Shown piece after piece: positions 1 to 59,462 of a stretch of DNA of 64,000 bases (the first letter of the stretch is position 1; each line of letters starts with the position of its first letter). The DNA lies in the NCBI GenBank assembly GCA_965226245.1, contig CBDDCL010000015.1:2166515-2230514 (forward strand), written 5' to 3'. This DNA is from Bryobacterales bacterium (GTDB lineage: Bacteria > Acidobacteriota > Terriglobia > Bryobacterales > UBA6623). The translations under genes were made by a program, and so were the position numbers. The notes beneath the pieces are model-generated. The model saw nothing but the letters and a program-made list of their open reading frames with translations, did not search any database and was not told the origin of the DNA.

Positions 1-286
1 CACGCGCCGGAGGCGCGGGGTGGCACGGCAAAGCCGTGCGCCACGGTTGTTCCGCGAAGGGTGCGGAGCTGTCTCACATATTCAGATTAGCAGGTGGTGG
101 GCGGGAAATCAGGAGTGGATTTATTTAAGCGTATGATTTGAAAGGGAATAAAAGTCTTGAAATAACGCGGCCCGTTTTTAGGGATGGGTGTTTTGGCGGT
201 TGGGGAGCGGTGGCCGGTTCAGATGCAGGCGATGAGACGCTACGTCGGCCCGGAGGCCGACGCGGCCCGCCAGGAGACGTGCGCCA

Positions 287-2198
287 GTGTGCCCAGCATG
301 GGCTGATTCTAGCAGGATGAAACGATCCTGCCGGGACCGATGGAGGTAACCGTAGGGAACCGCAGAGCGGAAGTCGTGGGGCGCAAGCCGCACGGTGAAA
401 GCCGAAGGAAGCGGGGAACAAATACTTCGACTGTAGGAACACAAACCGGCAGAGAGGCCGCGTACGGGCGGTTAGCGTGCTGGCCACCGCGAAGCCCAAT
501 ATCCATACGAGACGTGCGAGGTAGAGCCGGACGGCACGAAGGAACAGAATCAGCACCTTACCTGGGGAGAGCTGCCCCGTGAGAGCGGGGGAGAAGTCAG
601 CAGAAGCCATAGTAGCCGAGAAGGCGGGTAACGCCGCTGGAGCAAAGGGCTGAAGGACCAAGGAGCAAAGCTAGAGGAGCGACTGGCACAGCGTGCAAGA
701 GGTTTCCCGGAGTCCCGGACCGCAGGGTCCTTCCCCGCTGGGGGAACGAGACGGGGAGCAGGCGGAGGCAGAAGCGGTGGAACCGTGGCGGGCCAATGCC
801 GGCGGGAACCCGAGCGTGAGCCGCGAGACTCTCGACAGAAAGTGATGCACGACGATCTGATGGAACAAGTGGCGGCCGAAGAGAACCTGCGGCGTGCGCT
901 GGGGGCGGTGAAACGCAACCGCGGCGCGGCGGGCATCGACGGCATGACCACCGAACAACTCGAATCCCACTTGGCACGCCACGGTGAAAAGATCCGGGCG
1001 AAACTGCTGGCGGGGCGCTGGACGCCGAGTCCCGTGCGGCGGGTAGAGATATCCAAACCGCACGGAGGCCAACGGCTGTTGGGCATCCCGACGGTGATGG
1101 ACCGGCTGCTGCAGCAAGCGTTGCTGCAAGTTTTGACGCCGATCTTTGAGCCTGGTTTTGGGAGCCGATGTTCAGCGAGTCGAGCTACGGATTTCGGCCA
1201 GGGCGGAGCGCGCACGATGCGGTACGCGTGGCACAGGGATACGTCCGCGAGGGCAAGGACTGGGTGGTGGATATAGACATCGCCAAGTTCTTCGACCATG
1301 TGAATCACGACATTCTGATGCGACGGATCGCGCAAGTGATTCGGGACAAAAGGATCTTAAGATTGACAGGCCGGTATTTGAGGGCCGGAGTACTGCTGAA
1401 CGGGGTGCTGGTCAAAAGCGAGGAGGGCACGCCGCAAGGCGGGCCGCTGTCTCCATTGCTGGCGAACATCTACCTGGATGCACTGGATCGGGAACTGGAG
1501 AACCGCGGGCTGAGTTTTTGCTGTTATGCCGACGACTGCAACATTTATGTGAGCAGCGAAGCGGCGGCGAAGCGGGTGCTGGCGGGGATCTGGAGCTGGA
1601 TCGAGCAACATCTGCGACTGCAAGTGAACGAGGCGAAGAGCGGGGCGGGGCGGCCTTGGGAACGGAAGTTTCTGGGGTTTCGCATCAACCGCCGGGGGCA
1701 GCGGGAAGTGGCGCCGCAAAGTGTCGAGCGGCTCCAGCAGAAGGTGCGAGAGATATGGCGCAGTTGCCGCAGTGTCACGAGCCGGGAATTACGCGACGAG
1801 TGGCGGCGGTATATCGTCGGCTGGTGGGGTTACTACCGGCTGGCCGAGGATCGGCGCGCGGTCTTTTGGCTGGAAAGCTGGATTCGGCGGCACATTCGGA
1901 AGTGCTTCTGGCTGCGCTGGCACAGCGTGCGGGGTCGCTGCCGCGCATTGCGGCGCTTGGGCGTGCCCGAGCGGATGCTGCGCTATGTGCCGACGCGTCG
2001 TGGCGCTTGGTTTGTCGCGGCGCGGGCGATGATGCATCGGGCCCTGTCGAAACGTAATTTGCAGCGTTACGGATTTGTGATGCCATCGGATCTCGCGGCC
2101 AGCAGTTAAGCCGCTGGGTCCAACCGCCGGATACGGAAAACCGTACGTCCGGTGGTGTGGGAGGGTGCCGGGGCGCAATCCCCGGTACCCGACCCGAT
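287..2198 (+). mobile_element. Group II intron, class C (IIC)
   Basis: Starts GTGTGCCCAGCATGGGC at 287. Domain V/VI-like AACCGCCGGATACGG...CCGTACGTCCGGTGG...GACCCGAT ends at 2198. Internal RT/maturase ORF has no C-terminal endonuclease domain. Confidence 0.9.
845..2109 (+). pseudogene. ltrA: Intron-encoded reverse transcriptase/maturase, frameshifted
   Basis: Motifs GAAGIDG, RLLGIPTVMDR, SYGFRPGRS, GTPQGGPLSPLLANIYL and YADD are split across two frames by a 14-nt insertion at 1153-1166. Confidence 0.88.
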
Positions 2199-2222
2199 CG
2201 TCATTGGACAAAGATCCAAACG

Positions 2223-4850
2223 CTAGGCGGAGGCGCCTTGCGGCCCGGCGGCCTCAGCCAGCAAGCGCTCGGCTTCTTCGTAGGCCGGTTTGTAGTAGTG
2301 CGGCGGGCCGTCGCAGTAGGCGTAGTCCTTGGCTTTTTGGGCGTGGCCGCGGGCTTCGGCGGGCTTGCCGGAATCGAGGGCGAGGCGGGCCAGGAAGTTG
2401 TGGATCTCGGCCTGGTTGAGGCGGTACTCGCAGCGGTCGGCGATGGCGAGGGCTTTTTGGGCGGTCTCGCGGTCTTGGTGCAGGCGCGCCAACGCCAGCA
2501 GGATGGAGGGTTCGAGGTCGACCAGGTTGACGCGGCGGCAGCGGGTGAGGGCGTCGTTGAGGTGGGGCTCGGCGGCGGCCGTCTCACCTAGGGCCGTGTG
2601 GGCCCAGCCCAGCAGCCACTCGGCCTGGATGATATCACGCTCAAGGCCGTGGACGTCGGTGAGGCGGCGGGACTCCCAGGCTGCTGCCAGGGAAGCTCGA
2701 ACATTCCCCCGAAGCAAACTCAGCAGGGCGTGATAGGCTGGGTCCACGCACCGTCGGTGACTCACCTCGAGCTCCGACGTCAACGACGAGGGGCCATGGC
2801 CACTATTTATCATTTTCCAAAACTTTGTTGAGGACTCGAGCTCGCGCTCGGCCTCGGAAAAGCGACCTTCGTAGGCGAGCAGCCGTCCAAGCTCCTGATG
2901 GCCGATTGCCTCCCTGTCCTCGTTCTCGATCTCGCGGCACAGATCGATTCTGCGCCGCAGGCCACCTTCGGCTGCAGCCAGGCGGCCCAGCCTGAGCCGC
3001 TGAGTGGCTAGGTTCCCCAGGCCGACGGCGAGGCCATCTTTGACATCTTGCTTCTCATCAATCGCGATCTGCATCTCGGACAACGGGACTGCCCGGCGCG
3101 GCTGCGCCGACAGGCTGTATGAGTTGGCCAGCGCATTGAGCGTCCAGGCCTGGGCACTCTCGGATTCCAGCCGCGGCGGCCGCTTTTCGCCCTCGGGAAA
3201 CAGCGCCCCCAGCAGCTCGATCGCCCGTTCGTAGGCTCCGAAGCGGTAGTAAAGTGGATTCGGGATCAGCCGGTCACGCAGCAGGCGTTGAGCCGCGTCG
3301 AGGCGACTGGCGCCTACGGTGTGCCAGTAGAGCTCGATTGTGGGAGCCAGGTCGGCTAGCGTCTCGACCCGCTCCGGCGCGGGGCGGGCCTCGAAGTATT
3401 CCCGCAGGCGGCCGTGTATGCCGGCCTTGTCGGCCAGCCGGTCGTAGGAGTACTGCCGCACGATCGGATGCAGGTCGTAGCGCTCGCCGTCCGGGTCGCG
3501 CAACAGCAGCCCGCGCGCCTCGAGCTCGTCCAGGGCCGCGTCCAGCTTGGCACCCTTCAGGGTGGCCACGGTCTCGAGCGCCTCGTAGTCCATGGGGCTG
3601 CGAAAGGCGGCGATGCGGCTGAGCAGTTCGCGGCGCTCGGCGGACATCTCGTCGTAGGCGACTGCGAGGATGTCGTGCCCGTGCTTGCCCTTCAGCTTGT
3701 CCAGCACCGTGTGCCGCCCCGACGCCTTGATGTCGCCCTTCATCCGGCGGTCCTTGACGATCGCCCGCGCCAGCAGGCTCACCGACAACGGATGCCCGCC
3801 GTAGGGCGCGACGGCCTGGGCGATCTCCGCCCGCGTGCCTTTCACCCCCGTGGACTCGAAGAAGCTCACCACGTCGTCGGGCGCCAGGTTTTCGAGCCGC
3901 TCGTGGCGGCAGCCGGCAAGGTCGATCAGCTCGTTTGGAAACAGGCGCGAGGTGAGCAGCACTCGCCCGGCGAGCGCGAGCGAGGCCGCGGACTGCAGGA
4001 ACTCGGCGGCGCGTGGGTCCACGCAGTCGTTGTCGTCCCCGCCTCCCTCAACGTCGCCCTGATAAGGGGCGCGGTAGCCGGCGTAGGCGCGCAGCTCGCG
4101 CTCGAAGCCGTCGAGGATGAGCAGGATGCGGCGCTGCCCGAGCGCGCCGAGCACGATGTCGAGTTTTTCGCGGTCAGACAGGTCGGCGGCCGAGTCGTCG
4201 CTCGCTCCGACGTAGCGAGCGGCCCGGTCGAGGAAGGCGCCGAAGTGAGCGTCCCGCTCGTAGAACGACCAGAAGAGCACGCCCTCGGGGCGCCGGTCCT
4301 CGGGGACGCGCAGGTTTTCCGCGTCCGCTTTCGAGTAGCCGGCGGGCGGGGCGCCCAGCACGTCGGCGTGCAGCCAGAACCAGGCCAGGGCCGACTTGCC
4401 CATGCCTCCAATGGCCTCGACCACGCAGACCGGCCGCGAGCCGGCGGTGAACCATTCCGTGAGCCACCCGCGCTCCGCAATGCGCCCTGTGAAGTTGGGT
4501 TGCAGCGGGTACGGGTGGACGAGGTCCGGCGCGAGCCGCTCTGGCGCTTGCTGGTTGGGCAACTCCCGAGGCTGGGGCTTGGTCGTGGGCGGTTCTTGCT
4601 TGACTGGCTCCGGAGGCTTCTTCCCAACTGCGTCCAGTTCCGCCTTTTTTTCAGTCCTCTTCTTCAGATAGATCCAAAAAAGCGAACCCAACCCGCAAAC
4701 ACCTACAGCCCCAACGAGGCCCCACATCCCATAGGCCTCAACGAAATCACCGACGAGCTCCCCGAGGCTCTTCTTGACCTCTTCAGGCAACGCGACCTGG
4801 ATTAGCGCGAGTTTCGGGTGGAATACCATGTGGGCGACCCGCAAAGTCAC
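2223..4850 (-). CDS. STAND-class (NB-ARC/AAA-like) NTPase with C-terminal TPR-like repeats and N-terminal hydrophobic helix
   Basis: Walker A GGMGKS, Walker B LLILDGFE, GGHPLSV and YDLHPIVRQY motifs, helical repeat C-terminus. Start codon uncertain (4850 or 4829). Confidence 0.8.
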   Translation of the reverse strand: MTLRVAHMVFHPKLALIQVALPEEVKKSLGELVGDFVEAYGMWGLVGAVGVCGLGSLFWIYLKKRTEKKAELDAVGKKPPEPVKQEPPTTKPQPRELPNQQAPERLAPDLVHPYPLQPNFTGRIAERGWLTEWFTAGSRPVCVVEAIGGMGKSALAWFWLHADVLGAPPAGYSKADAENLRVPEDRRPEGVLFWSFYERDAHFGAFLDRAARYVGASDDSAADLSDREKLDIVLGALGQRRILLILDGFERELRAYAGYRAPYQGDVEGGGDDNDCVDPRAAEFLQSAASLALAGRVLLTSRLFPNELIDLAGCRHERLENLAPDDVVSFFESTGVKGTRAEIAQAVAPYGGHPLSVSLLARAIVKDRRMKGDIKASGRHTVLDKLKGKHGHDILAVAYDEMSAERRELLSRIAAFRSPMDYEALETVATLKGAKLDAALDELEARGLLLRDPDGERYDLHPIVRQYSYDRLADKAGIHGRLREYFEARPAPERVETLADLAPTIELYWHTVGASRLDAAQRLLRDRLIPNPLYYRFGAYERAIELLGALFPEGEKRPPRLESESAQAWTLNALANSYSLSAQPRRAVPLSEMQIAIDEKQDVKDGLAVGLGNLATQRLRLGRLAAAEGGLRRRIDLCREIENEDREAIGHQELGRLLAYEGRFSEAERELESSTKFWKMINSGHGPSSLTSELEVSHRRCVDPAYHALLSLLRGNVRASLAAAWESRRLTDVHGLERDIIQAEWLLGWAHTALGETAAAEPHLNDALTRCRRVNLVDLEPSILLALARLHQDRETAQKALAIADRCEYRLNQAEIHNFLARLALDSGKPAEARGHAQKAKDYAYCDGPPHYYKPAYEEAERLLAEAAGPQGASA

Positions 4851-15501: not shown

Positions 15502-15648
15502 GAGCCGCGAAGCGGCGCAGGATCGTAGCCCAGGGTGGAGCGAAGCGGAACCCTGGGTGCGAATACCATCAAGGGTAAGCCCCGCACGGGGCGTAGGAGC
15601 AGACCGGCCCGTTCGTCTCCGAGGAGAGCAATGTGCGGCGGGCGTTCA
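15502..15648. repeat. ~145-bp dispersed REP-like element (CCCAGGGTGGAGCGAAGCGGAACCCTGGG family)
   Basis: Inverted homolog at 38205-38349 and partial copy at 37935-38044. Confidence 0.8.
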
Positions 15649-43675: not shown

Positions 43676-43766
43676 GGGTCGATCTCCTTGGGCAGTAGGT
43701 CCCGGCTCTCAGCCGGTCCCTAGAGTTTCTACATTCTGCAGACAGGGGGGACGAACCGCCCTGAGG

Positions 43767-43812
43767 TGGCGCGCGCCTCCCGGCGGGCCGCGTCGGCCTC
43801 CGGGCCGACGTA
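43767..43812 (-). repeat. Hairpin repeat homologous to the intron 5' exon (241-286)
   Basis: 43/46 identity in reverse complement. Confidence 0.88.
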
Positions 43813-59166: not shown

Positions 59167-59320
59167 GTGCGTCCTGAAGACGCGTTGTTCTAGCGGGTGC
59201 AAGTCCGGTCCGGGTAAGCTCCGGAGCGCCCGGTAGCAGGCTCCAGAGGGAGGAGAGATCCGACCAAGCGGAGTGTCAAAAGCCCTTGCAAGGGAAGGGA
59301 GCCAACCAGCGGGCCACAAC
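59167..59320 (+). mobile_element. 5' relic (domain I start) of a second group II intron
   Basis: Begins GTGCGTCCTGAAGACGCGTTG..GCGGGTGCAAGTCC..TCCGGGTAAG..GGAGCGCCCGGTAGCAGGCTCC, a pattern recognised from bacterial intron 5' ends. No RT or domain V follows. Confidence 0.55.
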
Positions 59321-59462
59321 AATCAGTGAGCGCTGTCAAAACGCTTACCACTCCTCCTACCGCGATAATTCACATTTGTCGGCAGTGGGGAAGCGCATCT
59401 CCCTTCCTTGACCCCCGGAGCCAAATCCCGTACGAGCTAACACCTGGAGGGCGCGCCGCCCT

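Follow-up and report, generated by a model that had tools for sequence, protein, structure and literature searches.

A group IIC intron of a Bryobacterales bacterium and the dispersed REP-like double-hairpin repeat that it occupies

The window, a 64,000-nucleotide stretch of DNA from a soil-dwelling acidobacterium of the order Bryobacterales, opens with a group II intron of class C (IIC), very probably a retroelement that follows the usual IIC target rule and takes its stem-loop from a dispersed, transposase-less, REP-like double-hairpin repeat. Wherever a 5′ junction could be recovered in the host genome (G000; 7.84 Mb, with the window on its main contig, C15), it falls at the same point of this repeat. 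The EBS1 of the intron and the IBS1 of its sites covary among relatives, and the repeat is found independently of the intron. The targeting mechanism is ordinary for IIC introns, i.e. a stem-loop plus a 4-nt IBS1, and the new element is the specialisation on REP-like repeats.

Identity and architecture of the intron

The intron and its 3′ flank have the following features.

287 to 2198, plus strand: IIC group II intron (Rfam, genome blastn, IEP closest to the GsI-IIC RT)
481 to 484, plus strand: EBS1, UGGC, in the terminal loop of a domain I stem (Rfam consensus structure, compensatory changes in relatives)
845 to 1276, plus strand: N-terminal piece of the RT/maturase, out of frame after about 1160 (ORF)
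1147 to 1160, plus strand: 14-nt insertion that breaks the RT frame relative to the intact G001 and G024 homologues (placement ambiguous by a few bases)
1168 to 2109, plus strand: C-terminal piece of the RT/maturase, RVT_1 and GIIM without an endonuclease domain (Pfam)
2122 to 2198, plus strand: domains V and VI (Rfam RF00029), with domain V at about 2123 to 2156
2199 to 2202, plus strand: start of the 3′ exon, CGTC, corresponding to the conserved C-N-T-C of the repeat module; C2199 is the presumed IBS3

The element is 1912 nt long, begins with GTGTG at 287 and ends with CCCGAT at 2198. A preliminary description of this DNA had called a IIC intron here, and both the ribozyme domains found by Rfam and an IEP nearest to the GsI-IIC RT bear this out. 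The Rfam matches are D1D4-3 at 395–554 (RF02001, 72.8 bits), D1D4-1 at 558–650 (RF01998, 44.7 bits) and the Intron_gpII domain V/VI model at 2122–2198 (RF00029, 43.1 bits), each above its gathering score. When the IEP was compared with PDB sequences by phmmer, the best solved match was the GsI-IIC RT (3.7e-101, 341 bits), followed by the Eubacterium rectale IIC RT (1.5e-61, 211 bits); representatives of other classes scored much lower, including TeI4h (IIB; 1.2e-20, 77 bits) and LtrA (IIA; 1.2e-19, 74 bits). The only Pfam domains in the IEP are RVT_1 and GIIM, and an endonuclease domain is absent. The RT/maturase ORF stops at 2109, 13 nt 5′ of domain V. As read off the sequence, domain V carries a CGC triad at 2125–2127 with a G.U wobble, plus a 2-nt bulge. 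Such a CGC triad is typical of IIC introns. The grouping of the RT, the missing endonuclease domain and the predicted ribozyme domains all fit membership in class C.

Downstream of the intron, an 875-aa ORF on the minus strand (2223–4850) has its stop codon facing the 3′ end of the intron. Elsewhere in the window are a 5′ stub from another group II intron (59191–59324, plus strand; RF02003, D1D4-4, 64 bits) and an Acido-Lenti-1 RNA (15503–15557, minus strand; RF01687, 40.2 bits), which fits an acidobacterial origin.

Intron copies lie in a two-hairpin module

A blastn search of the host genome recovered 11 full-length intron copies with 98.8–100% identity, together with truncated or internally deleted ones. 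The 5′ junction could be recovered for 19 copies, namely the 11 full-length and 8 further ones. All 19 junctions lie directly after the GCGCCA of a two-hairpin repeat, hereafter the module, which occurs in several sequence variants. The DNA farther upstream is unrelated among the 19 sites, which indicates independent insertions. The 3′ exons all start with C(G/A)NC.

A profile built from the 19 occupied flanks and run with nhmmer on C15 identified 227 copies, 19 occupied and 208 empty. The preliminary description had singled out 241–286 as one copy of a repeat, and mapping of all its genomic copies thus gives at least 227 on the main contig; this is a lower bound for the family, as more diverged relatives lie beyond the nhmmer count. 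The copies occur as single units spread over 7 Mb. In coordinates that count upstream from the insertion point, the stem of hairpin 1 comprises 8 bp (−44 to −37 with −32 to −25) around a 4-nt loop and that of hairpin 2 comprises 7 bp (−22 to −16 with −11 to −5), likewise around a 4-nt loop. On the 3′ side of hairpin 2 follow GCCA (−4 to −1), the insertion point and C-N-T-C. Among the empty copies, GCCA terminates 197 of 208 and C occupies +1 in 201 of 208, and GCGCCA is near-invariant.

Both stems are supported by covariation. Paired bases occupy 92.5% of the stem cells, 43 cells are changed on both sides, and none of 500 shuffles was as good; covarying pairs include TA/CG, CG/GC and AT/CG in hairpin 1, and CG/TA and CG/AT in hairpin 2. 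In B-type copies, GCCA stays unpaired beside two folded hairpins (z −4.9 and −5.3). The stems often contain G.T as well as A.C mismatches and thus give no hint of an RNA structure specific to one strand. As a short palindromic unit with more than 100 copies, an extragenic distribution and covarying stems, the module is a REP in the broad sense.

Two copies of the module lie in the window.

241 to 286, plus strand: occupied A-type two-hairpin module, with hairpin 1 at 243–250 and 255–262, hairpin 2 at 265–271 and 276–282, and IBS1 GCCA at 283–286
43763 to 43812, minus strand: empty A-type module, 46 nt plus CCTC, between two minus-strand genes

The reported match of 241–286 to the reverse complement of 43767–43812, at 43 of 46 positions, was reproduced. 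Its mismatches (positions 32, 37 and 40 of the 46-mer) all fall within hairpin 2, and it is far above chance, given that nhmmer recovers 227 copies on the main contig. The hairpin that had been noted upstream of the intron, CGTCGGCC-cgga-GGCCGACG at 244–263, is present and is not followed by a T-run, as had been said; 23 nt lie between it and the insertion point, and it is hairpin 1, not the stem-loop that is recognised. The latter is hairpin 2, which abuts IBS1 and was missed by the preliminary description, where only the distal hairpin appeared. Hairpin 2 of the occupied window copy is imperfect and weak, with two mismatches in its stem. The poor match of the 3′ exon, in which CGTCA aligns to CCTCA of the empty copy, also stands. 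It follows from the fact that the module runs past the insertion point only as C-N-T-C and that occupied A-type copies are CGTC-like, not CCTC.

EBS1 pairs with IBS1 and covaries with it

As the preliminary description had envisaged, EBS1 could be defined in domain I: it is UGGC and lies where the Rfam consensus places the terminal loop of the D1 stem; it forms 4 bp with the GCCA at 283–286. The pairing changes in a compensatory manner among relatives, from GCCA/UGGC here to CCCA/UGGG in G002 and GCUA/UAGC in G004. The wider clade adds at least nine more perfect combinations, which brings the compensatory combinations to at least 12 overall. The further IBS1/EBS1 pairs are listed below.

GCUC/GAGC, GCAG/CUGC, CAGG/CCUG, UGUC/GACA, GGUC/GACC
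GCCU/AGGC, CCUA/UAGG, CCCU/AGGG, CAAG/CUUG, GUCC/GGAC

Exceptions are G024 and G005, where EBS1 is CGGC against an IBS1 of GCCA, giving an A.C mismatch at −1. A search for EBS3 by covariation yielded no clean column among the introns compared. The stem-loop directly before a 4-nt IBS1 makes this the canonical arrangement of a IIC site (compare PMC1702495).

The normal IIC rule asks for a DNA stem-loop, then a 4-nt IBS1 paired to EBS1, then one 3′ base. Hairpin 2, with its 7 bp and 4-nt loop, presents a single-stranded GCCA for pairing with the UGGC at 481–484, and the introns are inserted between this GCCA and the C that begins the conserved C-N-T-C. The hairpin may be recognised as single-stranded DNA at replication forks, in the manner known from characterised IIC introns. 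In the host genome, dnaA lies at 6.16 Mb, and the skew reaches its minimum at 6.43 Mb and its maximum at 2.58 Mb. Thirteen intron copies run with the fork and six against it, a strand bias that is not significant.

GCCA|C is already in place in about 95% of the 208 empty copies. The family therefore constitutes a large reservoir of harmless extragenic landing sites, and such a reservoir explains the 19 insertions. The suggestion that a REP-like family serves as target reservoir is thus upheld: all 19 junctions are in the family, at least 208 copies are empty, T-tracts are lacking, the copies are extragenic, and the family is also present in a genus in which this intron was not found.

Genomic context of the module

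Genes were called with our own crude codon-usage caller (5039 genes), and the orientation statistics are hence approximate. By these calls, 202 of the 208 empty modules are intergenic. For the non-cassette empty copies that have a gene at most 300 nt away, the module is faced by gene 3′ ends in 63 sense and 78 antisense cases, and by 5′ ends in 30 and 37. The module therefore lies more often beside gene 3′ than beside 5′ ends (141 vs 67 within 300 nt), and with the 63/78 split this shows that it favours gene ends, as REPs do, in either orientation. Another count of orientation relative to the adjacent gene gave 111 vs 91.

Several known kinds of element were considered for the module and rejected. 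It is not a classical intrinsic terminator: a T-rich tail follows 3 of the 208 empty copies, there is no orientation bias, and a terminator scan found nothing at either window copy, with no T-run after either. A link to RAYT or IS200-type transposases was dismissed because none of the 24 Y1_Tnp matches in the genome is flanked by the module; for the 23 on the main contig, no module lies within 2.5 kb save in one fortuitous case. The best Rfam match to the module, at 20.8 bits against a gathering score of 54.6, is a sub-threshold chance match and identifies no known RNA family. An integron attC site does not fit, as the module consists of two short perfect hairpins, scattered singly, with no cassette array. 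Nor is the module a MITE, being a 46–50-nt unit without TIRs, of which only the B1 subset lies inside a TIR-bounded unit of about 820 nt.

That larger unit holds about 35 copies of B1, the most uniform subtype of the module, between inverted GGAGTTTCTACATT ends. It is MITE-like and non-coding (e.g. G000:C15:1009790-1010607, with about 20–40 relatives), contains an AT-rich promoter-like stretch as well as the B1 double hairpin, and is flanked by copies of a ccagccgtaaaacggctgg hairpin. The GGAGTTTCTACATT TIR motif also occurs in the window at 43723–43735 on the minus strand. Next to it, at 43695–43720 (minus strand), is a second hairpin repeat, ggaccggctgagagccggtcc, followed by ctac, which corresponds to a GTAG-tagged REP on the other strand. 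The ggaccggctgagagccggtcc hairpin often abuts the module and was seen upstream of many copies. A third hairpin repeat, gcggacggaagtccgc, is likewise common, so that the intergenic DNA is a mosaic of hairpin families.

Related introns and repeats in other genomes

Homologous introns were gathered from relatives, as the preliminary description had foreseen, and those of G001, G024, G005 and G009 follow the same module. With 150 candidates scored per genome, strong matches to a covariance model of the module number at least 81 in G003 and at least 102 in G005, counts that are lower bounds, and none were found among the candidates from G007, G011 and G027. In G003, which belongs to a different genus, no DNA match to the intron was found, and its RTs are only 37% identical, with no close IEP. 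The repeat family is abundant there without the intron and is thus independent of it. The G003 modules are nearly base for base the same as those of the host, including GCCA|CGTC (L061, L063, L065). Such near-identity across genera is unusual for non-coding DNA and suggests either recent spread or strong constraint.

A second pairing of intron and repeat occurs in the Bryobacterales MAG CBDBKC01, where 24 of the 26 copies of a sister lineage lie behind a different dispersed hairpin that ends in GCUA, CGCGGACC(T/C)C-loop-G(A/G)GGTCCGCG-CTA, and two lie elsewhere. EBS1 is UAGC in all 26 copies. Hairpins of this type are also dispersed in G004, with at least 25 copies compared with 0 in a reversed-pattern control.

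Had the intron been found at ordinary terminators unrelated to the repeat, the proposal of a REP-like reservoir would have lost its footing. None of the 19 insertions in the host genome lies at a hairpin followed by a T-tract, although the main contig offers about 150 sites of that kind. The picture is mixed in the more distant G017, whose introns occupy both the module and other hairpins (three of five sites are other hairpins), a usage that fits generic IIC rules. G017 also has four ORF-less mini-introns on C4, in which positions 1–566 of the query are joined to 1805–1912 and which are presumably mobilised in trans.

G017 mini-introns: C4:2453463-2454173, C4:4238046-4238756, C4:2583861-2584571 and C4:66481-67190

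In the G019/G010 lineage, the intron follows a stem resembling hairpin 1, so this related intron uses the other hairpin type. These diverged introns (L083–L086 in G019, L010 in G010) are placed directly after cgtcgacc-tgga-ggtcgacg, followed by c(a/g)g.

A conserved frame break in the RT gene and signs of exon co-travel

The 14-nt insertion at about 1147–1160 that splits the RT gene is present in all 12 ORF-bearing host copies and in the G002 copy, and is absent from G001, G024 and one truncated host copy (C15:6088556-6089803). Between the G000 and G002 copies, dN/dS is 0.33 in the N part and 0.165 in the C part, as low as between intact copies, so the broken RT gene still seems to be under selection. 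Possible routes to RT expression despite the break are a −1 frameshift at GGT TTT GGG or an internal start at ATG 1168. The candidate start codon, ATG here and TTG in G002, is located behind GGGAG. The intron may still be mobile, despite the frame break in the RT gene of every full-length copy.

The occupied sites differ from the empty ones within hairpin 2. Hybrid combinations of its 5′ and 3′ arms are enriched at occupied sites (12 of 19 vs 55 of 208, p = 0.0025). At A-type sites, T at −7 is found in four of six occupied but five of 72 empty copies, and C at +2 in none of five occupied but 48 of 72 empty copies. Among the 11 full copies, the relatedness of the introns follows the 7-nt 3′ arm that adjoins the intron (p = 0.0056 by permutation). 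In these copies no such tracking was seen for other parts of the module, namely hairpin 1 and the 5′ arm, or for the 3′ exon, nor was the 3′-arm signal seen in the 26-copy MAG CBDBKC01. From these patterns it looks as if about 11 nt of donor exon, comprising the 3′ arm and IBS1, travel with the intron in this genome.

Alternative explanations

The module might be the phylum's own intrinsic terminator without a U-tract, with the intron a textbook terminator-seeker. The location of modules mostly beside gene 3′ ends (141, against 67 5′ ends) would agree with this, as would the position of the B1 subtype at the end of a promoter-bearing non-coding cassette, and given the preference for gene 3′ ends a role of the module as bidirectional terminator or RNA stabiliser is possible. 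As an account of the insertions it is nevertheless quite improbable, since orientation is random by either count (63 sense vs 78 antisense; 111 vs 91), just 3 of 208 empty copies have a T-tract, the copies are near-identical within and between genera, unlike terminators, and all 19 insertions are in the module despite the roughly 150 canonical terminator-like sites on the contig. Alternatively, the pattern could be a passive by-product, in which insertion takes place at any hairpin followed by GCCA and only insertions in junk repeats survive selection. Generic hairpin+GCCA|C sites number 512 on the contig, and only 177 of these are in the module family. The other 335 lie outside the family as defined by nhmmer, many of them probably inside genes, and relatives use other hairpins at low frequency (3 of 5 sites in G017, 2 of 26 in the MAG), which lends this idea some weight. 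We regard it as unlikely, however, because many of the 335 have weak stems or are diverged family members and because group II introns splice, so that sense insertions within genes are not necessarily lethal. Under either filter the outcome is the same, with the repeat family as the reservoir.

A further alternative is that the intron itself has spread the repeat, as a hitch-hiking 5′ exon or through a SINE-like parasite of its RT, so that the association would reflect common descent, not targeting. The tracking of the 3′ arm by the 11 full copies and the excess of hybrid hairpins at occupied sites are in its favour, and CGTC-type REPs too have no known transposase (PMC3733652). For the module as a whole, this explanation is largely refuted and we consider it very improbable: the diversity among the 208 empty copies far exceeds that of the introns, which are about 99% identical; G003 has at least 81 copies and neither such an intron nor a close IEP; the module extends 3′ of the insertion point; intron relatedness is not reflected in hairpin 1 or the 5′ arm; and the 3′-arm signal is absent from the 26-copy MAG. 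We therefore favour targeting, by the normal IIC rule, of a REP-like repeat that exists independently of the intron.

Comparison with known systems and implications

IIC introns are known to occur after terminator motifs "or other inverted repeats" (PMC1702495), and bacterial group II introns as a whole have been assigned three natural target specificities, namely homing sites, terminator motifs and attC (PMC4424553). The closest relatives in kind are B.h.I1 of Bacillus halodurans and GsI-IIC of Geobacillus, which share the IEP class, a compact ribozyme, the CGC triad of domain V, a 5′ exon defined by a stem-loop and a short IBS1 (PMC1702495), and many near-identical intergenic copies. In contrast to their T-rich tail, IBS1 here is GCCA, and the stem-loop comes from a conserved repeat of more than 200 copies, without a U-tract or a fixed gene orientation. 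The IIC-attC introns, such as S.ma.I2, are likewise a IIC sub-lineage on one family of repeated structured sites other than terminators (PMC4424553). Unlike attC, the site described here is built of short stems with perfect pairing and a GCCA|CGTC junction, and is scattered chromosome-wide, with no long imperfect palindrome and no cassette array.

The use of extragenic palindromic repeats as a safe landing site is shared with ISPpu9, ISPpu10, IS1397 and the group II intron of Pseudomonas putida KT2440 (PMC1525189). Compared with the REP-targeting insertion sequences, the present element is a retroelement whose site would be read by RNA–DNA pairing; compared with the KT2440 intron, of which two of nine copies are REP-associated (PMC1525189), the association is complete (19 of 19). 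A IIC clade with a specialisation on REP-like repeats was not described in the literature that we covered.

For the module itself, the closest described class is that of the CGTC-tagged REPs (Di Nocera et al. 2013, PMC3733652), and the fit is partial. Those repeats have stems of 8–9 bp that start with A-T, loops of 4–5 nt, a CCA tail, CGTC/TGTC/CCTC variants and no transposase (PMC3733652). The module resembles them in its 8-bp stem, 4-nt loop, unpaired CCA-type tail, CGTC/TGTC/CCTC variants, extragenic location and lack of a transposase. It differs in being a fixed composite of two hairpins, with CGTC/TGTC paired in hairpin 1 and a second C-N-T-C after the tail, and its stems start with G-C; moreover, Acidobacteriota are not among the phyla listed for CGTC repeats.

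A broader scenario, which we put forward tentatively and as more doubtful than the targeting itself, is that Bryobacterales IIC lineages each co-evolve with a transposase-less, REP-like hairpin family specific to a species group, EBS1 being retuned accordingly (GCCA, GCUA, CCCA, GCAG and others), and would thus represent a fourth target class. In the same scenario, about 11 nt of exon would co-travel, with homology of the shared repeat helping to complete the 5′ junction, and RT activity would persist through −1 frameshifting or through an enzyme made of two pieces, despite the frame break.

With its conserved frame break, the RT offers a case in which recoding or a split enzyme could be tested, and the table of EBS1/IBS1 pairs allows easy annotation of the intron family and possibly retargeting. 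The Bryobacterales have a IIC clade that lives essentially only in dispersed REP-like repeats, as seen in two intron/repeat pairings that are independent of one another and show a matching EBS1 in either case. They thus offer a system for asking which features of a stem-loop IIC introns actually recognise, how the spread of retroelements and that of REP-type repeats influence each other, and how intergenic repeat "junkyards" form in the large genomes of soil bacteria.
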